Shown: positions 39,105 through 64,000, counted from the first letter of the stretch. The stretch: 64,000 nucleotides of DNA from Gammaproteobacteria bacterium (GCA_965250225.1 CBDFNQ010000035.1:129641-193640), one strand, 5' to 3'. Translations and numbers: made by a program. The notes: a model not told the origin generated them from the letters alone.

Positions 39105-39106
39105 CC

Positions 39107-39727: not shown

Positions 39728-39731
39728 GTGT

Positions 39732-43225: not shown

Positions 43226-43280
43226 TCTATGTCTCCTAACTGTGAGTCAAATGGGGCAAGCTTGGCAATTCGCTTTTTGA

Positions 43281-43500: not shown

Positions 43501-43604
43501 TCGGTACTAATGTAATGAACCATCCCACCTACTAGTCTGGCAATATTGTGTTGCCAGCTTATTATTCAAATTCAATTATTTGAATAACGAACGGGAGTTC
43601 TATC

Positions 43605-44516: not shown

Positions 44517-44523
44517 AGTATTT

Positions 44524-45143
44524 CAAGATAGTTGTCGCGTAAACGTAAAAAATAGTTAAGCCGCCCTCTTAACCGTAGATGTATATTCATTGGCTTTATC
44601 AGGGTTTAATAACACCTCCTGAACAGGTTCCCAATTCCTTGTGTTACCTGACCAACGCTGCGGATATTTTGCTTTGGCTGCCTGATAAACTTGATGGCGT
44701 TTCGCCAGAATTGTTTTATCGTTTCCCGCGTGGCGTTGTGCCGGCGTCACAAATTTAATCGCACTATGAAGATGCTCATGGTTATACCAGCTGACAAAAC
44801 CTGCGACCCATTCACGTGCATCGACTAATGTCTTAAAGGGCAGTGAGGGATATTCAGGACGATATTTCAAGGTCTTAAACAAGGATTCAGAATACGGATT
44901 ATCATTGCTGACCGAGGGACGACTCAAGGATGGGATAATACCCAACTGTTGTAAGGTCGCCAACATCGTGGCCCCTGTCATCGGGCTGCCATTGTCTGAA
45001 TGCAACACGACCTGGTGGCGTTGAAGGCCTTCACGGTAACACACATCCACCAACAAATTCGCCGCCAAGTCACTGCTCTCCGAGTCATGTACCTGCCACC
45101 CTACAATCTTCCGGCTATAGATATCCATCATCAGATACAAGTA
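44524..45143 (-). mobile_element. IS3-family element, 3' fragment (orfB C-terminal part and right end)
   Basis: Track ORF 44556..45140 encodes the rve integrase core ...YLYLMMDIYSRKIVGW...HSDNGSPMTG...NPYSESLFKTLKYRP. The end sequence CAAGATAGTTGTCGCG resembles the other end TGAGATTAAGTGTCGAC at 47693. Boundaries are approximate. Confidence 0.75.
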
Positions 45144-45144
45144 A

Positions 45145-45732
45145 AAAAATAACCCTTTAATTAAATAAGGTAAACCCCCGGCTCTGCCGGGGGACTCTCA
45201 AAGGTTTGACCGTTCCCACGGTCTATCTATCCTAGTTACTCTACCAAAAGTAACAAAGGAAATAGAAATGAGAGATTACAAAAGTTTGTCCCATAGCAGA
45301 TGGGATTGTAAGTATCATCGTGTTTATACTGAAATATCGTCAGAAGGTTGTTTATGGGAGTTTTAGGTCTTATATCGGGGAGATGCTTCACGAGTTAGCG
45401 AGTCATCTAGAAAGTAAGATTGAAGAGGGACATATTGATGGGTGCTCATATCCATATGTGCATCAGTATTCCGCCAAAGTATCCGGTATCGAAAGTAGTG
45501 GCTACATCAAAGGGAAAAGTGCGATTATGATTTCACGGAGATTTGGCAGGAAGGCAAGGAATTACAAAGGAGAAAGCTTCTGGGCCAAAGGATATTTCGT
45601 TTCAACAATAGGTTTAGATGAAGAAATGGTACGAGAGTACATACGAACACAGGGCGAACGAGATAAATATTTCGATCAACAAAACTTACCGCATTAGCGG
45701 TGGGCTTTGCCCCTTTGAGGGGCTCACCCGTA
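45145..45732 (+). mobile_element. IS200/IS605-family element (decayed) inserted in IS3 orfB
   Basis: Left-end hairpin CCCCCGGCTCTGCCGGGGG (from about 45174) and right-end hairpin GCCCCTTTGAGGGGC (about 45708-45722) flank a tnpA pseudogene. It abuts IS630 copy B. Confidence 0.7.
45268..45697 (+). pseudogene. IS200-type Y1 (HUH) transposase TnpA with at least 3 frameshifts
   Basis: MRDYKSLSHSRWDCKYH (frame 1) continues as VFILKYRQKVVYGSFRSYIGEML (frame 2, shift near 45319). The HUH region GAHIHMCISIPPKYPVSKVV is readable only in the third frame (about 45435-45500). The reading then returns to GYIKGKSAIMISRRFG...FWAKGYFVSTIGLDEEMVREYIR. Confidence 0.8.
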
Positions 45733-46838
45733 TATACCCAAGATCGATGAAAGAGCTTGATGTTTATGAATTAAGAGATCAGTCTATCACCTATGAGCAA
45801 GATTGAATTAACCGCAGAAAACAAATTGAAATTAGAAGCACGACATAAGCAAGTGCGAGATATCCGGGAAGGTGATCGTATCAAAGCCGTATTACTGAAT
45901 TCTGAAGGGTGGAGCACAACGATGATAGCGCAAGCCTTGCGCAAACATGAAACCTGTATACTTCGTCACTTGAAGGACTATACCGGAGAGCAGAAATTGC
46001 ACTGTGCAAACGGCGGTTCCGAGGAGAAATTAAGCAAGCGACAATGTGACGAATTACTCGCACATCTGACAGCACATCTATATCAACATAACCACCAAAT
46101 TGTGGCTTACATCAAGACCCGTTATGGGGTTGACTACACGGTATCGGGTTTACATAAATGGTTGCATCGTCAAGGATTTGTTTATAAACAACCCAAAGGG
46201 ATCCCCGCCAAAGCCGATGTTGAACAACAACATGCCTTTATCAAGCAGTATGACGTATTGAAAGCAAACGTCGGTGCTGATGAGCCTATTTTGTTTGGTG
46301 ATGGCGTGCATCCGACACAGTCGACGAAATTGAGTCACGGTTGGATAAAGAGAGGGACAAATAAGCTTATCAAAACAACCGCGAGTCGCACACGGATTAA
46401 CCTATTAGGTGCGATTGAACTCAATGCCTTGTCAAACACGGTGACAGAAACCTATGACACGATTAATGCCGACAGCATTGTTGATTTTCTATCCAAATTA
46501 CGAGCGCAATACGTTGATGCAAACACCCTTCACTGGATAGTTGATGGGGCGGGTTATCATAAGGCGGCGAGTGTTAAAGAAAAGGCAAACGAACTTAATA
46601 TTAAGATACACATCCTGCCGCCTTATAGTCCTAATTTGAATCCGATAGAACGTTTATGGAAAGTGATGAACGAACACGTCCGTAATAACCACTATTTCCA
46701 TTCGGCCAAGGAATTTCGTGAGCAAATCGATGACTTTTTCAAAAACACTTTACCGGATATCGCGGACTCATTGAACGATAGAATTAATGATAACTTTCAG
46801 ATCATCGATCCTGCAACTTGAAGTTGATTGAGTATATA
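45733..46838 (+). mobile_element. IS630-family insertion sequence, copy B (1106 bp), inverted relative to copy A
   Basis: Same ends as copy A; the end sequences and all ORF translations are identical. TA at both junctions. Inserted at ...ADKEIY of IS3 orfB. Confidence 0.9.
45793..46821 (+). CDS. IS630-family transposase (identical to the 32033..33061 copy)
   Basis: The 342-aa translation is identical to copy A, and so are the two antisense track ORFs. Confidence 0.92.
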   Translation: MSKIELTAENKLKLEARHKQVRDIREGDRIKAVLLNSEGWSTTMIAQALRKHETCILRHLKDYTGEQKLHCANGGSEEKLSKRQCDELLAHLTAHLYQHNHQIVAYIKTRYGVDYTVSGLHKWLHRQGFVYKQPKGIPAKADVEQQHAFIKQYDVLKANVGADEPILFGDGVHPTQSTKLSHGWIKRGTNKLIKTTASRTRINLLGAIELNALSNTVTETYDTINADSIVDFLSKLRAQYVDANTLHWIVDGAGYHKAASVKEKANELNIKIHILPPYSPNLNPIERLWKVMNEHVRNNHYFHSAKEFREQIDDFFKNTLPDIADSLNDRINDNFQIIDPAT

Positions 46839-49573: not shown

Positions 49574-49852
49574 ATAGTCTCCTCATAATGCTTTCCGACC
49601 TCATCAGAAATGGCTTGCAGGGGAAAATATTATGGCACTCATTAGTCCTATAGAAAATCTAACCACTTTTTTATACTGTCAGGGTATAGTTGAAAAACTC
49701 CGAGTCTTTTATTACAGACCCAGCCAGTGATTTCCGATATACCCCTAATAATCTACCCCTGTAGATAGAAGCATAAGTGATTATTTTCATGCATAATTTG
49801 GTCTCCAAAACATATAAGAAAGTTTCCGATTTGATTGATTGGTTCTACACAA

Positions 49853-51109
49853 ATGGAAAAATATTCATTATTAAATTTGCTGCGTCACGCATGCTCTGGA
49901 AACACAGCATGGTCCCAGGCATGGCGACATCCTGAGCCGAAACCGGCTTATGATGTCCTCATCATTGGCGGTGGTGGACATGGCCTGGCAACGGCTCATT
50001 ATCTGGCAAAGGAACATGGTATTCGCGATGTCGCCGTATTGGAGAAATCCTGGATAGGTGGTGGCAACACTGGTCGCAATACCACCATTGTTCGCTCCGA
50101 CTACCTGCTTGAAGAAAACTCGCAGTTTTATGAATTTTCACTGGGCTTGTGGGAGACACTGAGCAATGACTTGAATTTCAACGTCATGCTCAGTCAACGT
50201 GGTGCACTGAATCTGGCTCATAGCGAAGCCGATCTGGCAAGCATGGCTAAACTGGGTAACGCTTTGCGTATTGCAGGTATTGATGCGGAATTGATGACGC
50301 GGGAAGAGGTGCAAAAATTTGTACCCTTACTTGATTGCTCTGATGATACAAGATATCCCGTCCACGGTGCCTTGTTACAGGGTCGGGGCGGCACAGCCCG
50401 ACATGATGCCGTGGCCTGGGGTTATGCCCGATCGGCCGACAGTTATGGCGTGGATATTATTCAGAACTGTGAAGTGACCGGTATGCAGATTGAAAAAGGT
50501 CGCATCCGGGGAGTGAAGACAAACCGCGGTACTATTCGCGCCGACAAGGTTGCTATCGAAGTTGCCGGCCATAGCAGCCAGGTCGCGACACTGGCCGGGT
50601 TGCGTCTACCCATTGAGTCACATTTGTTACAGGCCATGGTGACCGAGCCCATTAAGCCCGCACTCGATACTGTGGTAATGGGTCATGCCTTTGACGGCTA
50701 TGTCAGCCAGACTGACAAGGGTGAGATCGTCATGGGGGCGCAGCTGGATTATTATCCCAGCTATTCGCAACGCGGTAACTTACCACGCATTGAGGATATT
50801 GCCCGCTACACTTGCACCATGTTCCCAAGCTTCAGCCGACTGAGAATGATGCGTTCATGGGCCGGTATTAATGACATGACCATGGACGGTAGCCCGATCA
50901 TGGGTCCAACTCCGATAGATGGACTCTACATCAACGGTGGTTGGTGTTACGGCGGCTTTAAGGCGACGCCCGCGTCAGGCTGGACCTTCGCCCATACCCT
51001 GGCTCATGAGCAGGTTCATCCACTCATCGAACCATTTAATTTGGATAGGTTTATGTCGGGAAAAACCATTGATGAAACCGGAACCGGCCCGTTTCCACAA
51101 AGACACTGA
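49853..51109 (+). CDS. soxB: Sarcosine oxidase subunit beta (heterotetrameric type)
   Basis: MEKYSLLNLLRHA... N-terminus, YDVLIIGGGGHGLATAHYLAKEHGI, VLEKSWIGGGNTGRNTT. Followed by soxD, soxA and soxG. ATG 49853 is preferred over the track start. Confidence 0.9.
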   Translation: MEKYSLLNLLRHACSGNTAWSQAWRHPEPKPAYDVLIIGGGGHGLATAHYLAKEHGIRDVAVLEKSWIGGGNTGRNTTIVRSDYLLEENSQFYEFSLGLWETLSNDLNFNVMLSQRGALNLAHSEADLASMAKLGNALRIAGIDAELMTREEVQKFVPLLDCSDDTRYPVHGALLQGRGGTARHDAVAWGYARSADSYGVDIIQNCEVTGMQIEKGRIRGVKTNRGTIRADKVAIEVAGHSSQVATLAGLRLPIESHLLQAMVTEPIKPALDTVVMGHAFDGYVSQTDKGEIVMGAQLDYYPSYSQRGNLPRIEDIARYTCTMFPSFSRLRMMRSWAGINDMTMDGSPIMGPTPIDGLYINGGWCYGGFKATPASGWTFAHTLAHEQVHPLIEPFNLDRFMSGKTIDETGTGPFPQRH

Positions 51110-51120
51110 GGATAAAGCGT

Positions 51121-51402
51121 ATGCAATTGATAAAGTGTCCATGGTGCGGTGATCGCTCACAAAACGAGTTTAGTTACTATTGTGATGAAGAAGGCATCCC
51201 TGCCAGTAATGAAAAGGAAGGGACAGATAAAGACATGCTTGAGCGGCTTTACCTGAGAACAAACCACATTGGTTTTCACCATGAGGTTTGGCAGCACAGT
51301 GGCGGTTGTCGTGGTTGGCTTAGCCTGCAACGCCACAATCAAAGCCATGAAATCAAGACCAGCAAGCCACTAAATCGTACTCCAGGCAAGCCGGAATCAT
51401 GA
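51121..51402 (+). CDS. soxD: Sarcosine oxidase subunit delta
   Basis: 93 aa. MQLIKCPWCGDRSQNEFSY zinc-ribbon N-terminus is typical of SoxD. Confidence 0.88.
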   Translation: MQLIKCPWCGDRSQNEFSYYCDEEGIPASNEKEGTDKDMLERLYLRTNHIGFHHEVWQHSGGCRGWLSLQRHNQSHEIKTSKPLNRTPGKPES

Positions 51403-54400
51403 GCCAATCTCATCGTAAATCCAGCGGCGGTTTCATTAACCGCAAGTTGCCAATCAACTTTAGCTTCAATGGCAACGCCTATCAGGGCTATGCGGGTGAC
51501 ACCCTTGCTTCTGCCTTGCTGGCGAACGGCGTGCATTTTATTGGTCGAAGTTTTAAATATCACCGTCCCCGTGGCGTCTTTGCCATTGGTTCTGAAGAAC
51601 CTAATGCCCTGGTGCAACTCGAACGTGGTGCCTACACAGAACCAAATACACGCGCAAGCCAGGTTGAACTCTATGAAGGTCTCAGTGCATCCAGCCAGAA
51701 TTGCTGGCCCAGCCTGAATTTCGACATGCTCGCCGTTAACGATAAGCTGTCCGCCTTTCTCAAGGCCGGGTTTTATTACAAAACCTTTATGTCACCACGC
51801 TGGTTGTGGCCAGGTTATGAAAAGATGATCCGCAAGGCCGCCGGGATGGGGGATTCTCCAGTACAGGCAGATCCAGATCATTACCAACAAAAACACGAAC
51901 ACTGCGATGTACTGGTGGTTGGCGCGGGGCCAGCGGGACTTATTGCTGCACACACAGCGGCCAGTTCCGGCGCCCGGGTCATTTTCGTCGAAGAGGCAGC
52001 TGAGGTAGGTGGCTGGTTACGACGGGACAAGATGCAACTGAAAAATAAAGCGGCGCTTGACTGGTTTACGCCGATCATTGCAGCATTAAAAGACCGACCC
52101 AATGTGCTCATGCTCACCCGTACAACCGCTTTTGGCTACTATGATCATAATCTTGTCGCCTGTCTCGAGCGGCTAAGCGATCATATCAATAGTCAAGCGG
52201 GTTCTGTCGATGGTATGCCCCGCCAACGTCTTTGGCGCATCCGGGCAAAGCAAGTCATTTTGGCAACGGGTGCGATTGAGCGTCCTCTCACCTTTGCCAA
52301 TAACGATCTACCGGGCATCATGCTGGCCGGTGCTGCCCGTGGCTACCTGAACCAGTTTGCCGTTAAAGTCGGTCGTCGCGCCGTGATCTTGACCAATAAT
52401 GATAGCGCCTATCACAGCGCCATCGATCTTCATGATGGCGGTGTTAAAATCGAATGTATTATTGATCTACGGCTAATGCTAGTCCCTGACTCGGCATTAG
52501 TCAGGGCGGTATCGGAACGAAATATCCAGGTCATAAAAAATAGCACCATCACACATGCCTATGGCAAAAAGGCGGTTAACGCCGTTGAAATAAGTCAGGT
52601 TGATGCGCTACAAAGCGGCAAGTCACTGCGTATGTCATGCGATCTTGTTTGCGTTTCCGGCGGCTGGACTCCGGTCATCCACCTCCATGCACAGTCCGGC
52701 GGTCGTGCCCGTTACGACACGGATCTGGCTACCTTTGTCCCGGCTGAGTGTAAACAGGCAGAAAGATCTGTGGGGGCGGCACGCGGCCTGTTCGGGTTAA
52801 GCGATTGTATCCGGGACGGACTCCAGGCGGGGACAGAGATGGCGCAGCTATGTGGTTTTCGTGTGGGCGAATCTGTGAGCATTCCAGAGCAAACAGATGG
52901 ACTGAATGCCGTATCGGTAACCGATCCAACCCCTTCAAGTCCCCAACAACAATCCCGATACAAGCAATTCATCGATCTGCAAAACGACGTCACCACCCAT
53001 GATATCAAACAAGCACACACGGAAGGTTACATATCGGTAGAACATTTAAAGCGCTACACCACTCTGGGGATGGGAACGGATCAAGGCAAGACCTCCAATA
53101 TAAACGGATTGGAATTACTGGCTCGGCATCGACAAGAGACGATCCCTGAAGTGGGGACAACTACTTTTCGGCCACCCTATACACCCATAAGCCTTGGCAG
53201 CCTGGCCGGTTCTGCTATAAAAACACGGTTAGAGCCAAAACGACTCAGTCCCATGCATGCTCAGCAGGAAAAAGCCGGAGCGGTGTTTGTGCCCAATGGG
53301 CTGTGGCTCAGACCGCAATGCTATCCACTGCTGGGTGAATCCAACTCAGTCGCCGTACTACGTGAGATGACAGCGGTTAGAAATAAGCTGGGTATAGTGG
53401 ATGTATCTACATTGGGAAAAGTTGAAATAAAGGGAAAGGACGCGGTTGAGTTTCTTAACCGTGTTTATATCAATGGCTGGGATTCACTGGCTGTGGGTCG
53501 TTGCCGCTACGGTTTGATGCTGCGTGAAGATGGCATGATCCTGGATGATGGAACGACCTCGCGACTGGCGGAACATCATTTTTTCATGACCACGACGACG
53601 GGCAACGCTGAACAGGTTTTGCAACATCTCGAATTTTTCCTGGAAGTGGTCTGGCGCGATCTGGATGTCAATATTATTCCCGTCACTGAGCAATGGGCGG
53701 CGCTTGCCATGGCCGGCCCACAAAGCCGAGAACTTTTGTGCCAACTGTTTCCCGATGTGGATCTATCCAGCGAAGCGCTGCCTTATATGGGCATGCTTGA
53801 ATGTACGCTAGCGGGCTATCCAGTCCGAATCATGCGCATTAGTTTTTCCGGCGAGTTGGCCTATGAGATATACATACCCTCAAGCCAAGGCGCAAAACTG
53901 TGGAACCAGTTACTCAACCTGGGCAAGGCATATGGTGTTACACCTTATGGTCTGGATGTATTGGACATGCTTCGCGTCGAGAAAGGTTTTATCGGCATGG
54001 GCACTGATGCAGATGGCCGCGTAACACCTTACGATCTAGGCATGGGCCGGATGGTAAGCAAGAAAAAAGATTTTATCGGCCGTATTGCCTTGAAGCGTCC
54101 TGCACTGCACGCAGATGACAGGCTGAGTCTGGTCGGTTTAATCGCGGACGATAATGCTGAACTACGTGAAGGTGCGCACATATTGGCAACAAAAAACGCA
54201 TCCGGCTTTGGTGCATCAATCGGCCACATCAGTTCCGCCGCCTATAGCATCGCTTTGAACAAGCCCGTTGCACTTGCCATGATTAAAGGCGGACAAGCAA
54301 GACGCGATGAGACCGTCTTTGTTTGTGATCCCGTCCGTGACAACAAAATCGTCCCTGTCAAGGTAGTGAATCCGTGCTTTTACGATCCTGCCGGAGACAG

Positions 54401-54413
54401 GTTACGCGACTAG
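51399..54413 (+). CDS. soxA: Sarcosine oxidase subunit alpha
   Basis: 1004 aa. The N-terminal region resembles a 2Fe-2S fold, followed by NAD/FAD fold DVLVVGAGPAGLIAA and a C-terminal GcvT-like folate-binding domain (VDVSTLGKVEIKGKDA). Confidence 0.92.
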   Translation: MSQSHRKSSGGFINRKLPINFSFNGNAYQGYAGDTLASALLANGVHFIGRSFKYHRPRGVFAIGSEEPNALVQLERGAYTEPNTRASQVELYEGLSASSQNCWPSLNFDMLAVNDKLSAFLKAGFYYKTFMSPRWLWPGYEKMIRKAAGMGDSPVQADPDHYQQKHEHCDVLVVGAGPAGLIAAHTAASSGARVIFVEEAAEVGGWLRRDKMQLKNKAALDWFTPIIAALKDRPNVLMLTRTTAFGYYDHNLVACLERLSDHINSQAGSVDGMPRQRLWRIRAKQVILATGAIERPLTFANNDLPGIMLAGAARGYLNQFAVKVGRRAVILTNNDSAYHSAIDLHDGGVKIECIIDLRLMLVPDSALVRAVSERNIQVIKNSTITHAYGKKAVNAVEISQVDALQSGKSLRMSCDLVCVSGGWTPVIHLHAQSGGRARYDTDLATFVPAECKQAERSVGAARGLFGLSDCIRDGLQAGTEMAQLCGFRVGESVSIPEQTDGLNAVSVTDPTPSSPQQQSRYKQFIDLQNDVTTHDIKQAHTEGYISVEHLKRYTTLGMGTDQGKTSNINGLELLARHRQETIPEVGTTTFRPPYTPISLGSLAGSAIKTRLEPKRLSPMHAQQEKAGAVFVPNGLWLRPQCYPLLGESNSVAVLREMTAVRNKLGIVDVSTLGKVEIKGKDAVEFLNRVYINGWDSLAVGRCRYGLMLREDGMILDDGTTSRLAEHHFFMTTTTGNAEQVLQHLEFFLEVVWRDLDVNIIPVTEQWAALAMAGPQSRELLCQLFPDVDLSSEALPYMGMLECTLAGYPVRIMRISFSGELAYEIYIPSSQGAKLWNQLLNLGKAYGVTPYGLDVLDMLRVEKGFIGMGTDADGRVTPYDLGMGRMVSKKKDFIGRIALKRPALHADDRLSLVGLIADDNAELREGAHILATKNASGFGASIGHISSAAYSIALNKPVALAMIKGGQARRDETVFVCDPVRDNKIVPVKVVNPCFYDPAGDRLRD

Positions 54414-54427
54414 ATACAGGTATAAAT

Positions 54428-54952
54428 ATGAACGATACAAATGAATCACTGTTGTTCGCTGACAAGGATTTAAAAATCTCACAACAAAAGGGCATCGCAT
54501 TATTACACCTTTCCTCGCGTCACACTGTCCCTGCCGCGCTTCAGCAGATCGTTACAAATCTTGATATGACTATTCCGATGGAAGCGAATACGGTGATTCA
54601 TGGCGATCAGGAAAGTCGCGTATTTTGGTTTGGACCGGGGAGTTGGCTCATCCGTTGTGCGAATACAGATAAACCGCTCATCAATGATCCGGATAATGCC
54701 ATCACGGATATTTCCGATAGCCGCCTCATTTATCAAATTGAAGGGGATAAGGCATGTGAATTAATGTCCCTGGGCTGTCCCCTGGATTTTCGATCAAATG
54801 AGATCGCAGCAGATCGTTGCGGCCACACGATTTACAACCATTTTCATATTTTTATATACAGAATGGCCGAGTCTTGTTTTGAAGTGTATATAGAAAGGAG
54901 CTATGCCCATGGCTTTAGCTTGGAATTAATCAGTGCGGCTAATAACATATAA
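54428..54952 (+). CDS. soxG: Sarcosine oxidase subunit gamma
   Basis: 174 aa from ATG 54428. Position after soxA and typical size. The track start 54374 overlaps soxA. Confidence 0.75.
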   Translation: MNDTNESLLFADKDLKISQQKGIALLHLSSRHTVPAALQQIVTNLDMTIPMEANTVIHGDQESRVFWFGPGSWLIRCANTDKPLINDPDNAITDISDSRLIYQIEGDKACELMSLGCPLDFRSNEIAADRCGHTIYNHFHIFIYRMAESCFEVYIERSYAHGFSLELISAANNI

Positions 54953-55020
54953 ATATTTTTTTTATATCAAAAGGATTTTATTTGAGTAATGGTCTTTAAA
55001 AATAACAGGCGGGTAGAAAA

Positions 55021-56148
55021 ATGAGTTTAGAACAAACACTAGCGAAAGAATATTATTTTGACACTGGGATTTTTGAACAGGAACGTCAACATATCTTCCA
55101 TTCTGAATGGTTCTGTGCCGGACGTACATCGGATATTGTCGAAGCCGGCGACTACCAACTGGTGAATATCGCCGACGAAAGCATCATAGTCACCCGCACG
55201 TCAGCGGGTAAACTCAATGCATTCTATAACGTATGTCGACATAGAGGGACTCAACTGGTTGACAGTAGCGAGTTATCAGAAAAGGGTTCTTCCCCTTGCG
55301 GTAAATTTAAAGGTTCGATCAAATGCCCTTACCATGCCTGGCTCTATAATCTCGATGGTACGCTGCGGGGAGCACCCCATGTTATGCAAAACGACGATTT
55401 TTGCAAAGAGAACTTTTCACTCTATCCAGTGGCCTTGCTATGCTGGGGAGGCTTCTATTTTTTAAACCTTGACCAACAGGTATCGGCTGAAAATGGTACA
55501 TTTGAAAAACAACTCAATGACATTCTTGAGCGGGTAAAACGTTATGAGCTGGAAAATTTGCTTACGGCGGAAAGAATCCGCTATAACGTTGAAGCAAACT
55601 GGAAGGTAATATTGGAAAATTACAATGAATGTTATCATTGCGGATCGGTTCACCCTGAGTTGTGTGAGATCGTTCCCGCATTCAAAAAAAATGGTGCCGC
55701 AGGTCTGGATTGGGAACGAGGCATTCTACAGCGTAAAGGGACTGACACCTATTCTGTTACCGGAACTTCAAACCGTGCCTCTCTGCCGAAATTAAATGAA
55801 GAAGAAAAAGTCCGACATAACGGTGAACTGGCTTATCCTAATATGATGTTGAGTCTGGCCCGTGATCACGCGGCTGTGTTTATTCTGTTTCCAAAAGACG
55901 CAGAACATACCATTATTGATTGTCATTTCCTGTTTCATCCTGATGAAATAAATAAAACCGATTTTAATCCCGCCGACGCCACTGGTTTTTGGGATATGGT
56001 AAACAAACAGGATTGGACCATCTGTGAAAAAGTACAACGAGGAATGCGTTCCCGTGCATTCAAGTCAGGCTTTTATGCACCAATGGAAGATTTGAGTCTC
56101 GATATTAGACACTATATTGAAAAGCGTTTGGGTAGGAAGAATAGCTAG
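55021..56148 (+). CDS. Rieske (2Fe-2S) non-heme iron oxygenase, alpha-subunit type (GbcA/CntA/choline-monooxygenase-like)
   Basis: Rieske ligands CRHRG...CPYHAW with a long insert between them. Catalytic-domain motif NYNECYHCGSVHPEL. No reductase partner lies adjacent. Confidence 0.8.
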   Translation: MSLEQTLAKEYYFDTGIFEQERQHIFHSEWFCAGRTSDIVEAGDYQLVNIADESIIVTRTSAGKLNAFYNVCRHRGTQLVDSSELSEKGSSPCGKFKGSIKCPYHAWLYNLDGTLRGAPHVMQNDDFCKENFSLYPVALLCWGGFYFLNLDQQVSAENGTFEKQLNDILERVKRYELENLLTAERIRYNVEANWKVILENYNECYHCGSVHPELCEIVPAFKKNGAAGLDWERGILQRKGTDTYSVTGTSNRASLPKLNEEEKVRHNGELAYPNMMLSLARDHAAVFILFPKDAEHTIIDCHFLFHPDEINKTDFNPADATGFWDMVNKQDWTICEKVQRGMRSRAFKSGFYAPMEDLSLDIRHYIEKRLGRKNS

Positions 56149-56196: not shown

Positions 56197-57093
56197 TCAT
56201 TGACCAGTCATTTTAAGTAACCAATCACGAAAGGCGGTGACGGGTGCGTATTTTGATTTATCAATTGGTGATACCAGATAATATCCAGCCTCACTTTTCA
56301 GTGGGGTGTTAAAAATAACAATCAATTCCTCTTTGTCCAACTCGTGCTGAATTAGAAACTTGGGTAGCAAAGCGACTCCAAGACCTGCCACGGCAGCCTG
56401 GGCAATGATGGAAAATTGCTCAAACAGCATACCTTGTCCCACAGGTACACTGACCCCATTTGAGCTTAACCAGTTCTCCCAGGCATTGGCGCGACTGCTC
56501 AGGCGCAACAGTGACAGTGAGATCAAATCGGCAGGCGTGTTAATGCTGTGTTGATTTAACAAGCTTGGCGAGCAAACCGGAATTGACTCTTCTCCCATTA
56601 GAAAAGTGCTCTCAGTTGCAGGCCAGTCGGGTCTGCCATAGTGTATGGCGGCATGCAGGTTTTCATCCTGAAAATTAAAAGGTGCAAGTTTGCTGACAAA
56701 GTTGACAGTGACATCGGGGTGCTCTTGTAAAAACATTGGAAAACGCGGCATTAGCCAGCGTGTACCGAAGGTGGGTAATATGGCTAAATTCAAGGTACCA
56801 CTGAGCGGATTAGTGATCGCATTGAGGGTGGCATTGCGAATAAGCTGCAGTGCGCGATGTACTTCCTGGGCATAAATTATACCGACTTCAGTTAACTGAA
56901 TGGATTTACGTATTCGTCTAAAGAGAGTGATACCTAGTTGTTCTTCCAGCGCATGGATCTGTCGGCTGACGGCACCTTGGGTCAAATTAATTTCTCGGGC
57001 AGCGGCGGTAAAACTGCCGGTTCGTGCGGCAGAATCAAATGCCATGAGCATGCTGGTGCTGGGTATGAGTCGCTTTTGATTAGACATGTCCAT
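56197..57093 (-). CDS. LysR-family transcriptional regulator (GcvA-like)
   Basis: N-terminal wHTH FDSAARTGSFTAAAREINLTQGAVSRQIHALEEQLG and a C-terminal substrate-binding domain. Confidence 0.88.
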   Translation of the reverse strand: MDMSNQKRLIPSTSMLMAFDSAARTGSFTAAAREINLTQGAVSRQIHALEEQLGITLFRRIRKSIQLTEVGIIYAQEVHRALQLIRNATLNAITNPLSGTLNLAILPTFGTRWLMPRFPMFLQEHPDVTVNFVSKLAPFNFQDENLHAAIHYGRPDWPATESTFLMGEESIPVCSPSLLNQHSINTPADLISLSLLRLSSRANAWENWLSSNGVSVPVGQGMLFEQFSIIAQAAVAGLGVALLPKFLIQHELDKEELIVIFNTPLKSEAGYYLVSPIDKSKYAPVTAFRDWLLKMTGQ

Positions 57094-57511
57094 TACTATA
57101 TATCATGAATCAATGAAGTAAAGTGGTTTGTCCAAACTTAATAATTACTCCAATATATCAATGTATTAAGCAAAATATTGAATCTATCTCTATTAGCTGG
57201 ATTAGATAATTCTATGAGGTATAAGCATATGTTCTCGCTGTGTTCTCATACTGTAGTTGTGGCTGATTGTGTCAGGCTAAGAAATGTTGCCTCAGGTAAA
57301 AACAGACACTTTTTTGAATCGCGTTGATAAGACCATGCTTATCTTGCCATGTATAATGAGGCGACATAAGTTTTGACTTAAACTACGTCAGCAGGCAAGT
57401 TAGTGTGTTGTTGCCAGTCATGTTTTTTTACTGTTCCTGATCATCGTAGTAGTTTATAAAACTCTGCATATTAGTGACTGTGCCGCAGCATATCTCAACC
57501 AGGTGTTACGC

Positions 57512-58813
57512 ATGCAATTAAATAAACCAAACCAAACAACATTTTTATTTGCCATTCGCTCGTCATGGGCGCTGTTGCTTGGTTTTGGCATACTCATGAT
57601 TGGTGATGGTTTACAGGGTTCGTTGCTCGCCATCAGGGCGGATCTGCAAGGTTATACCACCATCACCACTGGTTTAATCATGTCTTCCTACTATATCGGG
57701 TTTTTATGTGGTTCGATCATGGCTCCTAAAATCATGGTGCAGGTAGGGCACGTTCGAGTTTTTGCGGCACTTGCTGCGATCGCATCAGCAGCTATTTTGA
57801 TCCATGCTGTCTTTGTCTACATTCCGGCATGGATATTTCTCCGTTTGATCAGTGGCTTTTGCTTCGCCGGACTCTACGTTGTTGCTGAGAGTTGGTTAAA
57901 TGATAAGGCCACCAATGAATCGCGCGGTAAATTGCTTTCCTTGTATATGGTCGTCACTTATCTAGGTGTGGGGCTTGGGCAATTATGTCTGAATTTGGGA
58001 GAGCCAACGGAATATCCACTCTACATAGTGACATCGGTGCTGATTTCAATCGCAGTTGTTCCCTTGTTATTATCAGCGGGAGCACCGCCACATTATTCAG
58101 AATCTGTGGGCATTAGATTACGAGAGTTATATCAAATATCCCCTCTTGGGATTGTTGGCATGTTTGTAGTTGGACTGGTGACGGCGACATTTTTTGCACT
58201 GGGACCCGTATACGGACAGCGCCATGGTCTCGATGTCGAAAATATTTCCTATTTTATGACCGCTGCTGTGGTAGGGACGATTCTGTTTCAGTGGCCTATA
58301 GGAGCTCTATCGGATAAATTTGATCGAAGGATTGTCCTTACCATCGTCACCTTGTTAACTGCGGTAGCTGCTTTTGCCTGTGTGCCATTCTCCGCAATAT
58401 CAAATGAAATACTGTTTTTAGCTGTCGCTGTCTTTTGTGGTTTTGCATTGCCCATGTATTCTGTTTGTATTGCCTACACCAATGATCACCTACAGCCCAG
58501 GCAGATGATCGCCGCAAGTGGTGCACTAGTTCTGGTAAGTGGGATAGGTGCAGTGATAGGCCCTGTTTTGGTGGCCACGGTGATGAATTATATTGGCAAT
58601 GACGGGTTTTTCTGGAGCATGGGCGTTGTCCATTTGTTAACAGGTCTTTTTGCCTTATATATAATGACAAAAGAAGCTGCCACGCCTCTCGATCAACAAG
58701 GCGTCATTACACCAACATCCATCCATCCATCAAGTTCAGTGATTGAGAGCATGCAACAATATGCAAAAGATGAGGCCTTGTCACAGGGTTCTGAATCGTC
58801 AACAGAGAAGTGA
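57512..58813 (+). CDS. MFS transporter
   Basis: 12 predicted TM helices and the loop 2-3 motif DKFDRR. ATG 57512 is preferred over GTG 57503. Confidence 0.85.
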   Translation: MQLNKPNQTTFLFAIRSSWALLLGFGILMIGDGLQGSLLAIRADLQGYTTITTGLIMSSYYIGFLCGSIMAPKIMVQVGHVRVFAALAAIASAAILIHAVFVYIPAWIFLRLISGFCFAGLYVVAESWLNDKATNESRGKLLSLYMVVTYLGVGLGQLCLNLGEPTEYPLYIVTSVLISIAVVPLLLSAGAPPHYSESVGIRLRELYQISPLGIVGMFVVGLVTATFFALGPVYGQRHGLDVENISYFMTAAVVGTILFQWPIGALSDKFDRRIVLTIVTLLTAVAAFACVPFSAISNEILFLAVAVFCGFALPMYSVCIAYTNDHLQPRQMIAASGALVLVSGIGAVIGPVLVATVMNYIGNDGFFWSMGVVHLLTGLFALYIMTKEAATPLDQQGVITPTSIHPSSSVIESMQQYAKDEALSQGSESSTEK

Positions 58814-59032
58814 GGTATGTTCTATCCCCATTGCCTCAGATCAAAAACATAATCTATTACAAAAACTCATTACTTCATGAAGTAATTTAGTTTGTGTATT
58901 TTCTAAATTATGACCAATATATTAATTATAACACAATTTTTAAAGACTAATTGGCATCTGTCAAAAAAGATTATCGATTAGTGTTTGGAATGCAAATTAG
59001 CTATTAACATACAGAATAACCTGGTGATGATT

Positions 59033-60469
59033 ATGTCAACAAAAGAAAAATACCAACCTTCTACAACAGAAAAAGACTTTATAGATTCAGTAGAAAAAGG
59101 CAGTTATGAGCGCCAAATTGTCAATGGATTGAAAAAATTCATCGACAAGAATGTGGCAGAGGATATGCAATCCTTTTATTCAGAACCTGAATTACAGGCA
59201 TTGGTGGATCTGCGTGATTCGGATCGCGATATCGAACAGCGTATGCCGGTAAAAATAACCCGTCACTATTTCGAACTAGCTAAAAACAGTACCGCCTTGC
59301 AGACTCTGGTGAAGGCCAGTCCGAAAGAAATCTTTGATCTGGATGGTGCTCCCGATCCGGGCAAGCAAATGGACTACTGTCCGGTAGAAGGATTGATTCA
59401 TAAATACGAATTAGGTCTTATCTATGTGGCATCAACCTGTTCAGCCCATTGCCGTTTTTGTTATCGCGAAGAATTGATTGCCAGAAAAGAAGTAGAACGT
59501 CCTGATGGAACTGTGGCGCCAAAAGGTCTGGCGCAGATCGGTGAGATTGTCGAGTACATAAAAGAGCACAACGAGATCGTTGCAGAGAACGATGGTATCC
59601 ATCCAGAAACGGGTCGGGAAAAACTGCGGGAAATCCTGATGTCGGGTGGTGATCCCATGGTACTGGGTAATAAAAATATCGCTGCATGGTTGTCAGCACT
59701 GGCCGAGGTGGGTATTGAAAATATCCGAATTGGCACCAAGGAACTGGCATTCTATCCTGATCGTTTCGACGACAGCTTCTTCGACATGATGGACAAATTC
59801 CACGCGCTTTATCCGGGTGTCAGTCTAAGAATTATGATCCACTTTAATCATCCAGATGAATTCCTGAAAAAAGATGCGAATGGAAAATACATGGATGATC
59901 CGGAAGGTGGTCTGCATTGGGTGGATAGTACCAAACGCGCTATTAAGGAATTGCGCAGCCGTAACTGGATCAATGTCGATAATCAGGCACCGATTATTAA
60001 CGGCGTCAATAACGATCCAGATGCATTGCGCATTCAGCAACGTGAACTCAAGCGTAATGGTGTTGAAAACCACTATTACTTTTGTGGCAGGGATATTATT
60101 GGTCACAAGGCCTTTAATGTACCTATCGAAGAGGCCTGGCGAATTCTCAATGAATCGCAAAAGGGTTTGTCCGGTGTGGAAACCCATGCCCGGCTTTCTA
60201 TTACGCATTATAAGGGAAAGACCGAAGTGGCGGCAGTGACCAATAAACCTGTAGCCGGTTTACCCGGCAGTGAAAACGGCGTTGTCATACTGAAATTATT
60301 ACGTGGCGCGGCGGAAGCATCGGATCGCGGTAAAATTGCAATATTGGGTTGTAACCCGGAAGCAATCTGGTTTAGCGGTTATAACGATCGGGTGCTGTTC
60401 GATGAAGCGGGATTTTTTGATGATGTTGCGGAAAATCAAACATCACCCAAACTCGCAGAAGCGATGTAG
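59033..60469 (+). CDS. KamA-family radical SAM 2,3-aminomutase-like enzyme (atypical)
   Basis: CSAHCRFCYR (CxxxCxxC), SGGDPM, HFNHPDEF, NQAPIINGVN and YKGKT (candidate PLP lysine) are collinear with lysine 2,3-aminomutase. It has a long N-terminal region. ATG 59033 or 59027. Confidence 0.8.
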   Translation: MSTKEKYQPSTTEKDFIDSVEKGSYERQIVNGLKKFIDKNVAEDMQSFYSEPELQALVDLRDSDRDIEQRMPVKITRHYFELAKNSTALQTLVKASPKEIFDLDGAPDPGKQMDYCPVEGLIHKYELGLIYVASTCSAHCRFCYREELIARKEVERPDGTVAPKGLAQIGEIVEYIKEHNEIVAENDGIHPETGREKLREILMSGGDPMVLGNKNIAAWLSALAEVGIENIRIGTKELAFYPDRFDDSFFDMMDKFHALYPGVSLRIMIHFNHPDEFLKKDANGKYMDDPEGGLHWVDSTKRAIKELRSRNWINVDNQAPIINGVNNDPDALRIQQRELKRNGVENHYYFCGRDIIGHKAFNVPIEEAWRILNESQKGLSGVETHARLSITHYKGKTEVAAVTNKPVAGLPGSENGVVILKLLRGAAEASDRGKIAILGCNPEAIWFSGYNDRVLFDEAGFFDDVAENQTSPKLAEAM

Positions 60470-60579
60470 CCAATCTGGAGTAACGTTAATCAATAATATG
60501 AATAAGTCATACTTGGTATACCGATAAAATTAAGTGAAAAAGATTTTTGCAGATACTGAAATCGGAAAGGTAGTAATTA

Positions 60580-61290
60580 ATGATCGATAAACAAGTGGGA
60601 TCAGTAGCAGAGGCCGTCGTCGATATTTTCGATGGTGCAGTGGTCATGGTTGGTGGTTTTGGTGAAGCCGGCAGTCCTGTTGAATTGCTCCATGCCCTGA
60701 TTGATCAGGGCGCAAAAAATTTGACTATGGTCAATAACAATACCGGTAGCGGGCATGTAGGTTTGGCTGCATTGATTGAATGTGGACGGGTCGACAAAAT
60801 GATTTGCTCATTCCCGCGTACCGCCAACTCAACTGTATTTCCCGATATGTACCGTAGTGGTGATATTGAACTGGAACTGGTTCCACAAGGCACGCTGGCC
60901 GAACGCATCCGGGCGGGCGGTGCTGGTATCCCGGCTTTTTATACCGCAACCTCAGTTGGTACTCCATTGGCAGAAGGTAAAGAAGTCAGAACATTTGATA
61001 AGCGTGATTATGTTATGGAATATGGGTTAACAGCGGACTTCGCCCTGCTTAAATGTGCCCGGGCTGATTGCTATGGCAATTTGGTTTATAACAAAACTGC
61101 ACGCAATTTCAGTCCAATCATGGCGTCGGCAGCAAAGAAGACCATCGTGCAAACCGACGCGCTGCTTGAAGTCGGTGAGATTGATCCGGAAATTATTATA
61201 ACCCCGGGAATTTTTACGCATCGTATCGTTACGGTCGGCAACCCCATGCAGGAATCAAGACTAGTCAATGAGGGGAGGACGTATCCATGA
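60580..61290 (+). CDS. 3-oxoacid CoA-transferase subunit A
   Basis: FDGAVVMVGGFGEAGSPVELLHAL...LTMVNNNTG is typical of family I CoA-transferase alpha subunits. Confidence 0.9.
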   Translation: MIDKQVGSVAEAVVDIFDGAVVMVGGFGEAGSPVELLHALIDQGAKNLTMVNNNTGSGHVGLAALIECGRVDKMICSFPRTANSTVFPDMYRSGDIELELVPQGTLAERIRAGGAGIPAFYTATSVGTPLAEGKEVRTFDKRDYVMEYGLTADFALLKCARADCYGNLVYNKTARNFSPIMASAAKKTIVQTDALLEVGEIDPEIIITPGIFTHRIVTVGNPMQESRLVNEGRTYP

Positions 61291-61964
61291 CAGCAGAGAC
61301 AGTCGGCTGGAGTCGTGACGAAATGGCGCAACGAGCCGCACAGGATATTCCAGACGGAGCCTATGTCAATCTAGGTATTGGTATCCCGGAAAAGGTGACC
61401 CGATATATCCCTGAAGGTCGGGAAGTGATTTACCACACCGAGAATGGATTGCTGGGTATGGGACCTGCACCACAAGCCGGTCAGGAAGATCCCGAGTTGA
61501 TCAATGCTGGCAAGAAACAGGTCACTGCCATCCCGGGTGCGGCCTATTTTCATCATGCCGACAGTTTTTGCATGATCCGTGGTGGTCATATCGATTTATG
61601 TGTTCTGGGAGCCATGCAGGTATCGGCCAGTGGTGATCTGGCAAACTGGTCAACGGGGGCAGCGGATGCGATCCCGGCTGTCGGCGGCGCGATGGATCTG
61701 GTGGCCGGGGTGAAAACAATTTATGTGATCACCCAACACTGCACCAAATCCGGTGAGCCGAAGCTGGTAGAATATTGCAGTTATCCGTTAACAGGAAAAG
61801 CGGTGGTCAGTCGCATTTATACCGATCTGGCGGTGATTGATGTCAGGCCGACAGGATTTATCGTGGTGGAATTGGCGCCGGGAATTGATTTTAATTATGT
61901 ACAGCAAAGAACGGCTTGCGAATTAGTATTTAATGAGTCGCAAACAAAAACAGCCAATGCCTGA
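61287..61964 (+). CDS. 3-oxoacid CoA-transferase subunit B
   Basis: Catalytic Glu motif YHTENGLLGMGP. Overlaps the subunit A stop. Confidence 0.9.
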   Translation: MTAETVGWSRDEMAQRAAQDIPDGAYVNLGIGIPEKVTRYIPEGREVIYHTENGLLGMGPAPQAGQEDPELINAGKKQVTAIPGAAYFHHADSFCMIRGGHIDLCVLGAMQVSASGDLANWSTGAADAIPAVGGAMDLVAGVKTIYVITQHCTKSGEPKLVEYCSYPLTGKAVVSRIYTDLAVIDVRPTGFIVVELAPGIDFNYVQQRTACELVFNESQTKTANA

Positions 61965-61985
61965 ATATGACGGGTGAGTGATAAC

Positions 61986-63326
61986 ATGAAAGCAGTACAG
62001 CCGAAAAAAGTCGTGGCGCAGTCAAAAAGTGAGGCGCTTTATCAGCGCGCCCTGAATAGTATGCCCGGGGGTTGCAGTCGCAATACGGTTTTACGTAAAC
62101 CGCATCCACTCTATACAGAAAAAGGTGAGGGCTGTTATGTCACCGATATCGAAGGTGTAAAGCGTATAGATTTTGCCAATAATATGGCTTCCCTGATCCA
62201 TGGGCATGCCCATCCACAAGTGGTTGCTGCAGTAAGCGAACAACTACAAAAAGGCACGGCCTATACACTAGCGACCGAGGTAGAAATTCTATACGCCGAG
62301 CATCTGTGTGATCGCAACGGTGGTTTCGATAAGATCCGTTTTGTAAATTCAGGCACTGAAGCGGTCATGAGTTGTTTAAAGGCAGCGCGGGCATTCACAG
62401 GTCGTGCAAAGATTGCCAAGGTGGAAGGTGCCTATCATGGCCTTTACGACTATGCCGAAATAAGCCAAACCTCAAAGCCTGATAATTGGGGGGAAGTTGA
62501 AAGACCCGCCAGTGTGCCGGTTGCCTACGGTACGCCACAATCGGCATTGGATGATGTGATCGTTATCCCTTTCAACGATGTTGAAACAGCCATAGCAATA
62601 CTTGATCAATATGCAGATGAATTAGCCTGTGTTTTAATCGATGTCTTACCGCATCGGGTTGGTCTTGTTCCCGCAACTAATGAGTTTGTTCAGGCTTTGC
62701 ACACGTGGACACGTAACAATAAATCGCTACTGGTCTATGATGAAGTGATTACTTTTCGCACAAATTATAGCGGCGCGCAGACGTGGTACGATGTTCGTCC
62801 CGATTTAACTGCATTGGGTAAAATGATCGGAGGTGGCTTTCCAGTAGGCGCCCTGGCCGGTAGTGAAGAGGTTATGGCTGTTATGGATCCATTGGCGGAT
62901 AAGCTTTTATTTCCCCATTCCGGCACCTTTTCCGCAAACCCGATCACCATGACAGCAGGCCTTGTATCAATGCAATTGTTTGACGATAAGGCAGTAAAAA
63001 GATTGAACCGATTGGCCGATTACGCACGCAGTCAAATCGCTGAAGCGATTCAGATCGCGGATATCACAGCCTGCGTAACAGGCGAGGGTTCCATGTTCCG
63101 CGTTCATATGAAGCCTGAACCGCCAGATAATTATCGAGAGGCATTTGTCTCCACGGAAGAATCCAGACGATTACTGATATTGCTGGATCACCTGTTCGAT
63201 AACGGCATTATGATGATCAATACTTGTACCGGTACGCTCTCAACAGTAATGACGGTAAACGAAATTGATCGACTGGTTGAAGTCATGTTAGCTGGATTTC
63301 GTAAAATTAAAAGTGCGATAACATAA
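61986..63326 (+). CDS. Class III (GSA-aminomutase-like) PLP aminotransferase
   Basis: NSGTEAVM, LVYDEVITFR and LTALGKMIGGGFPVGAL (PLP lysine) parallel the HemL/omega-transaminase family. ATG 61986 is preferred over GTG 61974. Confidence 0.82.
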   Translation: MKAVQPKKVVAQSKSEALYQRALNSMPGGCSRNTVLRKPHPLYTEKGEGCYVTDIEGVKRIDFANNMASLIHGHAHPQVVAAVSEQLQKGTAYTLATEVEILYAEHLCDRNGGFDKIRFVNSGTEAVMSCLKAARAFTGRAKIAKVEGAYHGLYDYAEISQTSKPDNWGEVERPASVPVAYGTPQSALDDVIVIPFNDVETAIAILDQYADELACVLIDVLPHRVGLVPATNEFVQALHTWTRNNKSLLVYDEVITFRTNYSGAQTWYDVRPDLTALGKMIGGGFPVGALAGSEEVMAVMDPLADKLLFPHSGTFSANPITMTAGLVSMQLFDDKAVKRLNRLADYARSQIAEAIQIADITACVTGEGSMFRVHMKPEPPDNYREAFVSTEESRRLLILLDHLFDNGIMMINTCTGTLSTVMTVNEIDRLVEVMLAGFRKIKSAIT

Positions 63327-63372
63327 ACAAAGATAGCCTAATACATTTTATATATTTGAAAGTGATTGAATT

Positions 63373-64000
63373 ATGACGGATGTTTTTATTTGCGACGGGA
63401 TACGAACGCCCATTGGCCGTTATGGTGGTAGTCTTGCCGCTGTACGAACCGATGATTTGGCGGCGATTCCGCTGACGGCATTAATGAAAAGACACCCCGA
63501 TGTTGACTGGTTAGCAGTAGATGATGTGATACTCGGTTGTGCCAATCAGTCTGGAGAAGATAACCGCAATGTCGCGCGGATGGCCGGGCTATTATCAGGA
63601 TTGCCACAGGAAGTGCCCGCAAGCACCATCAACCGCTTGTGCGGTTCAGGTTTAAATGCCATTGGCAGTGCAGCAGTAACGATCAAGTCAGGCGAAGCAA
63701 ATTTAATTATTGCCGGTGGTGTGGAAAGCATGTCCCGTGCGCCGTTTGTTATTAGCATGGCCAATAGCGGTTTTGACCGCTCCCAGGAAATGTTTGACAC
63801 CACCATGGGCTGGCGCTTTATTAATAAAAAACTGGATCGTGAATACGGTACCGAGGCCATGCCGAAAACTGCTGAAAACCTGGCGCTGGAATTTAAGATA
63901 AGTCGTGAAGATCAAGATCGTTTTGCTATGTGGAGCCAGACCAAAGCGGCCAATGCACAGCAGGATGGCCAGCTAGCCGAGGAAATTATTCCTGTGGTCA
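63373..64000 (+). CDS. Thiolase (acetyl-CoA C-acyltransferase, PcaF/PaaJ-like); 3' end lies beyond the window
   Basis: Open frame from ATG 63373 to the window end, absent from the track because no stop is reached. MTDVFICDGIRTPIGRYGGSLAAVRTDDLAAIPL...VILGCANQSGEDNRNVARMA...STINRLCGSGLNAIG contains the active-site Cys motif. Confidence 0.88.
   Translation, partial: MTDVFICDGIRTPIGRYGGSLAAVRTDDLAAIPLTALMKRHPDVDWLAVDDVILGCANQSGEDNRNVARMAGLLSGLPQEVPASTINRLCGSGLNAIGSAAVTIKSGEANLIIAGGVESMSRAPFVISMANSGFDRSQEMFDTTMGWRFINKKLDREYGTEAMPKTAENLALEFKISREDQDRFAMWSQTKAANAQQDGQLAEEIIPVV

Follow-up and report, generated by a model that had tools for sequence, protein, structure and literature searches.

A divergent KamA-like radical SAM enzyme and its gene partners as a candidate route from 2-aminoadipate to the end-steps of the β-ketoadipate pathway

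We analysed a 64,000-nucleotide stretch of DNA from a Gammaproteobacteria bacterium (GCA_965250225.1 CBDFNQ010000035.1:129641-193640; hereafter the window) and find at its 3′ end five genes on the plus strand (59033-64000) that encode, in this order, a KamA-like radical S-adenosylmethionine (SAM) enzyme, subunits A and B of a CoA-transferase, a class III aminotransferase and the start of a thiolase. The list of open reading frames (ORFs) and the family searches confirm the order and orientation described in an earlier reading of the same DNA (the original prediction), including a major facilitator superfamily (MFS) transporter and a LysR regulator upstream. We consider it rather likely that this cluster is a catabolic module sending L-2-aminoadipate into the lower β-ketoadipate pathway. 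The proposal builds on the gene identities, their conserved synteny, the kept catalytic motifs and lost lysine-binding aspartate pair of the KamA-like protein, and the probable PcaF identity of the thiolase; functions were assigned from sequence and gene context.

In the proposed pathway, 2-aminoadipate would derive from lysine, via 2-aminoadipate semialdehyde/piperideine-6-carboxylate, or be taken up from outside. The KamA-like enzyme, using a [4Fe-4S] cluster, SAM and pyridoxal 5′-phosphate (PLP), would shift the amino group from C2 to C3 and thus turn 2-aminoadipate into 3-aminoadipate, which the aminotransferase, a class III enzyme resembling glutamate-1-semialdehyde 2,1-aminomutase (GSAM), would convert to 3-oxoadipate. 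A PcaIJ/ScoAB-type CoA-transferase would then form 3-oxoadipyl-CoA, with succinyl-CoA as the probable donor, and a PcaF-type thiolase would split it into succinyl-CoA and acetyl-CoA. We infer both the substrate and the direction of flux, and the middle two steps are placed in their presumed order; transamination could instead act on the CoA ester. The underlying logic, in which an α-amino acid becomes a β-amino acid that is transaminated to a 3-oxo acid, activated with CoA and thiolysed, had been put forward in the original prediction and is supported here, as is the gene set.

Of the chains that make use of all conserved genes, a route from 2-aminoadipate is the simplest. It would explain the lost aspartate pair and the cationic Arg353 of the KamA-like protein, the PcaF type of the thiolase and, in relatives, the association with enzymes that form aminoadipate. 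It would likewise explain the carboxylate importers found beside the LysR gene, namely a tripartite ATP-independent periplasmic (TRAP) transporter, DctPQM, in several loci and the MFS transporter here.

The KamA-like enzyme and its substrate-binding residues

The KamA-like gene (59033..60469, plus strand), the proposed 2-aminoadipate 2,3-aminomutase gene, encodes 478 residues. Its start is the ATG at 59033, in agreement with the N-termini of homologues; the TTG at 58985 that was listed as the start is probably too early, since the same N-termini fit the later codon. The protein lies below the NCBIfam cutoff for the KamA family itself (TIGR00238, 96.1 bits versus a cutoff of 199.2). The original prediction had called for classification against the characterised aminomutases and EpmB, and none of the equivalog cutoffs was reached: 92.3 bits versus 650 for glutamate 2,3-aminomutase (TIGR04368), which is the second-best NCBIfam match, 83.1 versus 600 for arginine 2,3-aminomutase (TIGR04468), 80.2 versus 525.4 for lysine 2,3-aminomutase (KamA/AblA, TIGR03820) and 76.3 versus 369.3 for EpmB (TIGR03821). 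Pfam returned only Radical_SAM, below threshold.

The one significant sequence match in the Protein Data Bank (PDB) is lysine 2,3-aminomutase (LAM; 2A5H), with an E-value of 1.6e-11 over the N-terminal half. An AlphaFold model built with 33 homologues (mean predicted local distance difference test score (pLDDT) 69.5, predicted template modelling score (pTM) 0.73) was used for fold comparison alone, and Foldseek again places 2A5H at the top by far (E 1e-11, template modelling (TM) score 0.51/0.59, 18% identity), all others scoring 1e-4 or weaker. By these comparisons, the protein is a remote member of the KamA family.

Residue equivalences were taken from a family profile aligned to 2A5H with HMMER and from a MAFFT alignment with 2A5H, whose sequence was verified as exact, and intermediate relatives; both alignments agree. 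The CxxxCxxC motif corresponds to C136-x3-C140-x2-C143 (CSAHCRFC). This Fe–S motif, together with GGD, HFNHP, NQ, Arg145, Lys396 and Arg353, is invariant across the KamA-like family. In both alignments Lys396 stands opposite Lys337, the PLP lysine of LAM, and Arg145 opposite Arg134, the arginine that binds the α-carboxylate. The two aspartates that bind the ε-ammonium group of lysine in LAM are both replaced, Asp293 by Arg353 and Asp330 by Ser389 or a gap. An alignment by eye in the original prediction had placed an arginine and a Ser/Ile region at these positions and took this to speak against lysine and to be compatible with an acidic or neutral substrate; our alignments support the replacements. 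The loss of both lysine-binding aspartates, together with the cationic Arg353, fits an acidic substrate without identifying which one.

The enzyme shares its fold, motifs, PLP lysine and α-carboxylate arginine with KamA of Clostridium subterminale (2A5H), AblA, EpmB and the glutamate and arginine aminomutases. KamA-family enzymes carry out a SAM- and PLP-dependent 1,2-amino shift, and the same chemistry would be expected here. The differences from LAM are substantial: at ~18% identity and ~478 residues, the protein lacks both aspartates, lacks the zinc cysteines (Cys268 and Cys375/377/380), contains three large insertions and differs in its N-terminal region. It also departs from the KamA family in its occurrence in aerobic marine heterotrophs and in its gene context.

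More than 2,000 database proteins match the KamA-like protein, the best 120 being 71-83% identical. We collected 80 genome loci whose KamA-like proteins are 65-83% identical to that of the window; they represent Gamma- and Alphaproteobacteria, Planctomycetota (Mariniblastus, Pirellulaceae), Bacteroidota and Acidimicrobiia, and almost all are marine. Carriers that can be cultivated include Woeseia oceani XK5, Hoeflea sp. and Cucumibacter marinus DSM 18995. The family is therefore large and unusually conserved. Its members are labelled hypothetical, ‘KamA family radical SAM protein’ or ‘lysine 2,3-aminomutase’; the orthologue of Woeseia oceani bears the second of these labels at NCBI. A bona fide glutamate 2,3-aminomutase was sought among the distant homologues, and all ten of those tested are uncharacterised KamA-like proteins below every equivalog cutoff. 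Sister subfamilies (P0124-P0154), 35-50% identical to the window protein, have the same long architecture and a ‘QCR’ motif at the position of LAM Asp293; they may likewise act as aminomutases, on other acidic substrates.

The partner enzymes and the length of the substrate

The CoA-transferase is encoded by two genes on the plus strand that overlap by 4 bp. Subunit A (60580..61290) scores 333 bits against TIGR02429 (cutoff 128.5) and subunit B (61287..61964) 303.6 bits against TIGR02428 (cutoff 243.55), which places them in the PcaI/ScoA and PcaJ/ScoB subfamilies, respectively. The top PDB match of subunit A is 3CDK, ScoA of B. subtilis.

The aminotransferase gene (61974..63326, plus strand) encodes a 450-residue class III protein (Pfam Aminotran_3), the proposed 3-aminoadipate (β-amino acid) transaminase. 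We considered that it might be a glutamate-1-semialdehyde 2,1-aminomutase and discarded this assignment: the protein does not reach the cutoff of the HemL equivalog (333.1 bits versus 527.3), and its nearest structures are transaminases of β- and γ-amino acids. In fact, its top PDB match (E 1.6e-112) is 6K8H, an ω-transaminase of Sphaerobacter thermophilus that is active on β- and γ-amino acids (PMC10589169). The β-transaminases 2YKU (Mesorhizobium) and 4AO9 (Variovorax) follow at ~1e-54. These matches put the protein in the GSAM-like clade, of which the characterised β-amino-acid transaminases are also part. The characterised members have been studied on aromatic and aliphatic β-amino acids, whereas the substrate proposed here, 3-aminoadipate, is dicarboxylic.

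The thiolase gene (63373..64000, plus strand) runs into the window end, which leaves its N-terminal 209 residues. Despite covering only 208 of the ~400 residues of the models, the fragment scores 364 bits against PRK09050 and 349 bits against TIGR02430. The β-ketoadipyl-CoA thiolases 6PCA/6PCB are among its best PDB matches (E 5e-83), compared with ~1e-39 for acetoacetyl-CoA thiolases. A full-length orthologue, 78% identical, is found in L003, the locus closest to the window, and exceeds both cutoffs (TIGR02430, 678 versus 597; PRK09050, 692 versus 605). As judged from these scores, the window gene most probably encodes a PcaF-type (3-oxoadipyl-CoA) thiolase. In L003, the thiolase gene is the last of the operon and an agmatinase gene comes next; beyond position 64000, the operon of the window would likewise end after the thiolase.

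The identity of the thiolase bears directly on the choice of substrate. The original prediction had named glutamate as an example, with conversion to β-glutamate and release of malonyl-CoA beside acetyl-CoA. According to this explanation, the KamA-like protein is a glutamate 2,3-aminomutase in a pathway of β-glutamate catabolism, in which β-glutamate yields 3-oxoglutarate, or acetoacetate after decarboxylation, followed by the CoA ester and thiolysis. Several observations are in keeping with it: the second-best NCBIfam score is that of the glutamate 2,3-aminomutase model, the Clostridium difficile enzyme is reported to have a cationic residue resembling Arg353 at the Asp293 position, β-glutamate is established as an osmolyte and the window has betaine-catabolic genes beside the cluster, and acetoacetate would be an apt substrate for a transferase of the ScoAB type. 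However, 92 bits are far under the cutoff of 650, the thiolase is most probably of the 3-oxoadipyl-CoA type, and the repeated linkage with two enzymes that turn lysine into 2-aminoadipate (see below) is left without an explanation. We therefore give glutamate only the slimmest of chances, and malonyl-CoA as a product is likewise not supported. The PcaF-type thiolase and the lysine-to-2-aminoadipate neighbours point instead to the C6 compound 2-aminoadipate as the substrate and to succinyl-CoA and acetyl-CoA as the products.

Gene neighbourhood in related loci

For the neighbourhood survey, ORFs of the window, of Woeseia oceani and of the 80 loci were called and clustered, and counts refer to the 79 loci that yielded the gene. 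The original prediction had asked whether the gene set co-occurs elsewhere, and it does. The most constant partner of the KamA-like gene is the aminotransferase, whose orthologue (median 61% identity) is a neighbour in 59 of the 79 loci, followed by the CoA-transferase pair (35 of 79) and the thiolase (21 of 79). Such recurrence of the partners across related loci indicates that the gene arrangement is not due to chance. Once unrelated Planctomycete flanks are set aside, the families that recur in at least four loci are confined to pathway, regulator, transporter, ferredoxin and F420 genes.

Two further recurrent neighbours connect the cluster to lysine. An L-piperideine-6-carboxylate (P6C) dehydrogenase is encoded less than 10 kb from the KamA-like gene in 14 of the 79 loci (NF050084, 798-817 bits versus a cutoff of 730), in Woeseiaceae, other Gammaproteobacteria, Alphaproteobacteria and Planctomycetota. 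P6C dehydrogenase makes 2-aminoadipate and is normally encoded by a single-copy gene, yet it is found at this short distance in loci of three phyla, and the linkage is therefore not a matter of chance. In three Mariniblastus loci, its gene lies immediately 3′ of the KamA-like gene; in L084 and L085, which have proper gene calls and KamA-like proteins 80% identical to that of the window, it lies 2 kb past the operon (817 bits). The second neighbour, present in 8 of the 79 loci, is a 370-residue protein of the saccharopine dehydrogenase family (Pfam Sacchrp_dh_NADP and Sacchrp_dh_C), hereafter the lysine dehydrogenase (LysDH)-like protein. Its top PDB match is the Pyrococcus horikoshii protein 3ABI, which we take to be the L-lysine dehydrogenase of that organism. 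An Lrp/AsnC regulator gene often stands beside the LysDH-like and P6C dehydrogenase genes. The most complete arrangement is seen in two Woeseiaceae loci (L027 and L030), where the genes for the LysDH-like protein, P6C dehydrogenase, KamA-like protein, FdxA, CoA-transferase A, CoA-transferase B and aminotransferase form a seven-gene array in a single direction and with short gaps, with a divergent Lrp gene on the minus strand upstream.

The same neighbours could also be read in the order of a true lysine 2,3-aminomutase. β-Lysine would then be made first, the LysDH-like protein and the aldehyde dehydrogenase would oxidise its C6 amine to give 3-aminoadipate, and the later chemistry would be identical. 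Both neighbours are consistent with this order, and several sources label the homologues lysine 2,3-aminomutase. We nevertheless regard it as very unlikely. Both ε-ammonium aspartates are lost and one is now a cationic arginine, the protein scores 80 bits where the lysine 2,3-aminomutase equivalog requires 525, the neighbouring aldehyde dehydrogenases pass the curated cutoff of the ordinary P6C dehydrogenase, and many loci consist of the core genes and a TRAP or MFS importer with no LysDH-like gene.

A broader alternative is that the enzyme acts on some other amino compound, or performs radical SAM/PLP chemistry other than a 2,3-shift, and that the lysine-to-aminoadipate linkage reflects a general island of amino-acid catabolism. 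The protein is indeed below all curated cutoffs, with three large insertions and a different N-terminal region; the aminotransferase is the sole constant partner in most loci, and the remaining neighbours vary (F420 biosynthesis, Rnf and betaine genes). On the other hand, every catalytic motif of the aminomutases is kept, the partners are chemically complete only if a 3-amino and then a 3-oxo dicarboxylic acid is made, and the seven-gene array in one direction ties the KamA-like gene directly to the formation of 2-aminoadipate. This alternative is unlikely in our estimate.

Several results weigh against 2-aminoadipate as the substrate. In the structural model, pLDDT falls below 50 around the active-site loops (residues 102-126, 352-360 and 382-478), and with these loops poorly modelled the residue equivalences with LAM rest on the sequence alignments. 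The HMMER domain spanning Arg353 is weak (4.3 bits), and an arginine at the Asp293 position is frequent in many other uncharacterised KamA-like subfamilies, so that Arg353 does not identify the substrate. Neither the family models nor the PDB comparison separates the window CoA-transferase, as PcaIJ, from the acetoacetate-specific ScoAB. Among the cluster-linked thiolases, 5 of 19 are of the PcaF type, and the rest, mostly from Planctomycetes, are generic, as in the majority of Planctomycete clusters. P6C dehydrogenase has no gene nearby in 65 of the 79 loci, and tblastn over the whole 64-kb window detected no gene for P6C dehydrogenase, LysDH-like protein, FdxA/ferredoxin or Lrp.

A third group of neighbours concerns electron supply. 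An FdxA ferredoxin gene lies directly 3′ of the KamA-like gene in 11 of the 79 loci (158 bits versus a cutoff of 135), and in these relatives FdxA would provide the low-potential electron for the radical SAM cluster. In a Woeseiaceae metagenome-assembled genome (L016, 5070-9880), genes for RnfC and RnfD and three further ORFs stand directly upstream of the KamA-like and FdxA genes and in the same direction; these Rnf genes could supply reduced ferredoxin. Both the ferredoxin and the Rnf genes are in line with a radical SAM enzyme that requires a low-potential electron in an aerobic host. In 6 of the 79 loci (L011, L015, L032, L035, L036 and L060), which include Alphaproteobacteria as well as Gammaproteobacteria, the cluster is flanked at ~1-8 kb by genes of F420/FO biosynthesis; CofGH reaches 1159 bits, the assignments as CofD-, CofE- and CofC-like are provisional, and in L011 the genes lie 3′ of the KamA-like gene on the same strand. 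That a deazaflavin might reduce the radical SAM cluster is a guess.

Regulation, surroundings and relation to known pathways

The LysR-family regulator (56197..57093, minus strand; Pfam HTH_1 and LysR_substrate) resembles the GcvA subfamily, scoring 274 bits against PRK11139 (cutoff 288). In 33 of the 79 loci, an orthologue (median 61% identity) is encoded upstream of the KamA-like gene in divergent orientation, and LysR is the probable regulator of the cluster, which would form an operon under its control. The MFS transporter (57503..58813, plus strand; Pfam MFS_1, 122 bits) is the candidate importer of the substrate. It is not conserved in the other loci, where TRAP DctPQM occupies the same position beside the LysR gene in several cases and would take over this role.

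An 18-bp perfect palindrome, ATTACTTCATGAAGTAAT (58869..58886, no strand), lies 147 bp 5′ of the KamA-like start and is a possible LysR operator; it is not conserved upstream of the gene in related loci. The k-mer ACCAGCATGCTGG, which is enriched 5′ of the KamA-like gene in other loci, was considered as an operator and rejected, being coding sequence for the N-terminus of the divergent LysR. A scan for promoters and terminators performed no better than chance, with 15 promoter-like sites observed and 17.3 expected.

The original prediction had also suggested an osmolyte-catabolic setting from the neighbouring genes. Upstream of the cluster, the window carries a set of the heterotetrameric sarcosine oxidase family followed by a Rieske oxygenase (49835-56148); SoxB reaches 665 bits and SoxA 1321 bits, and they are accompanied by small ORFs that are delta- and gamma-like. 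The likeness of the Rieske oxygenase to the glycine-betaine monooxygenase GbcA is weak (206 bits versus a cutoff of 670), with no reductase partner visible. Four loci (L003, L031, L034 and L058) have, close to the KamA-like cluster, a gene resembling a dimethylglycine dehydrogenase/GcvT fusion, and in L003 (3645-8717) it is joined by a gene resembling MttB-family methyltransferases, which echoes the sarcosine oxidase surroundings of the window. The link with methylamine and betaine catabolism is weak but recurs. The suggested context receives weak support, as, beyond the window, betaine or sarcosine genes stand next to the cluster in only a few loci; aminoadipate itself has been described as an osmolyte in Ruegeria pomeroyi (PMC4334477), and the proposed route may also consume aminoadipate used in this way.

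Three transposase ORFs of the IS256, IS3 and IS630 families (42127-46821) lie just upstream of the sox and KamA-like region, so that the catabolic genes may sit in a variable island. Further upstream, at 36744-41168, the G+C content is raised (~0.50) with a strong AT skew (0.26 at 40-42 kb), and the large ORFs there (458 and 531 residues) have no NCBIfam match at E ≤ 1e-20. A single tRNA gene (11603-11686, minus strand) is the sole Rfam match of the window at the gathering threshold.

We compared the cluster with known routes from lysine. Lysine dehydrogenase and P6C dehydrogenase form a known bacterial route to 2-aminoadipate (PMC9854754), which experiments have verified in Ruegeria pomeroyi, a marine species (PMC4334477). 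Genes homologous to those of this route (R. pomeroyi SPO0234/SPO0235; Agrobacterium) lie beside or inside the KamA-like cluster in many relatives. The route ends at aminoadipate, and a cluster of the window type would be a different way onward.

The known onward routes from aminoadipate proceed by way of 2-oxoadipate and lead either to glutaryl-CoA or, with the DUF1338 enzyme HglS, to 2-hydroxyglutarate. On plasmid pTM2 of Tistrella mobilis (L082, NC_017966.1 335828-352532), the closest plasmid-borne homologues of the CoA-transferase (68% identical) and LysR (45% identical) adjoin an orthologue of P6C dehydrogenase (62% identical), a class I aminotransferase and a DUF1338 protein, and no KamA-like gene is present at this locus. 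The pTM2 set may take aminoadipate further by another route, within the same regulatory setting. In Pseudosulfitobacter, a plasmid-borne CoA-transferase homologue adjoins an IclR regulator. Both plasmid contexts are suggestive, not decisive.

With classical lysine fermentation (KamA, KamDE, Kdd, Kce, Kal, AtoAD and thiolase), the cluster shares a KamA-type start and an end formed by CoA-transferase and thiolase. The original prediction had set the cluster apart from this pathway, and the survey agrees: no gene for KamDE (B12-dependent 5,6-aminomutase), Kdd (3,5-diaminohexanoate dehydrogenase) or Kce occurs at 44-64 kb of the window or among the families present in at least four of the 79 loci. 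The lower β-ketoadipate pathway has in common with the cluster a PcaF-type thiolase and a CoA-transferase of the PcaIJ/ScoAB subfamily, with succinyl-CoA and acetyl-CoA as the predicted products. It differs in the origin of 3-oxoadipate, which there comes from aromatic ring cleavage and here would come from an amino acid through a β-transaminase; no gene of the pcaB, pcaC, pcaD, pcaG or pcaH type is found among the families recurring in the 79 loci.

A full-text literature search, with most subscription journals outside its coverage, returned no published account of this route or of a 2-aminoadipate 2,3-aminomutase, and nothing relevant on 3-aminoadipate, β-homoglutamate or KamA with aminoadipate. 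We lean towards the view that a new substrate class for a known type of enzyme is combined here with known modules into a new pathway. With about even confidence, we propose further that this is a widespread, undescribed catabolism of lysine and 2-aminoadipate in aerobic marine Proteobacteria, Planctomycetota, Bacteroidota and Acidimicrobiia, in which a new radical SAM/PLP 2-aminoadipate 2,3-aminomutase would be the key enzyme, 3-aminoadipate an unrecognised metabolite, and the carbon delivered to the tricarboxylic acid cycle without loss, as succinyl-CoA and acetyl-CoA from the end-steps of the β-ketoadipate pathway.

The disposal of 2-aminoadipate formed by the lysine dehydrogenase or saccharopine routes is only partly known, and the described routes proceed via 2-oxoadipate. 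If the proposed pathway is correct, the 2,3-aminomutases would gain a fourth substrate class, the C6 dicarboxylic acids, and 3-aminoadipate would be a natural metabolite. A natural 2-aminoadipate 2,3-aminomutase and a 3-aminoadipate transaminase would also be of interest for engineered pathways to C6 dicarboxylates of the adipate type. Reassignment of the family would correct many annotations, as most homologues are now labelled hypothetical or, probably wrongly, lysine 2,3-aminomutase. Amino-acid catabolism would be joined to the end-steps of the β-ketoadipate pathway with no carbon lost, and an oxygen-sensitive type of enzyme, with a dedicated ferredoxin, would be at work in common aerobic marine heterotrophs.

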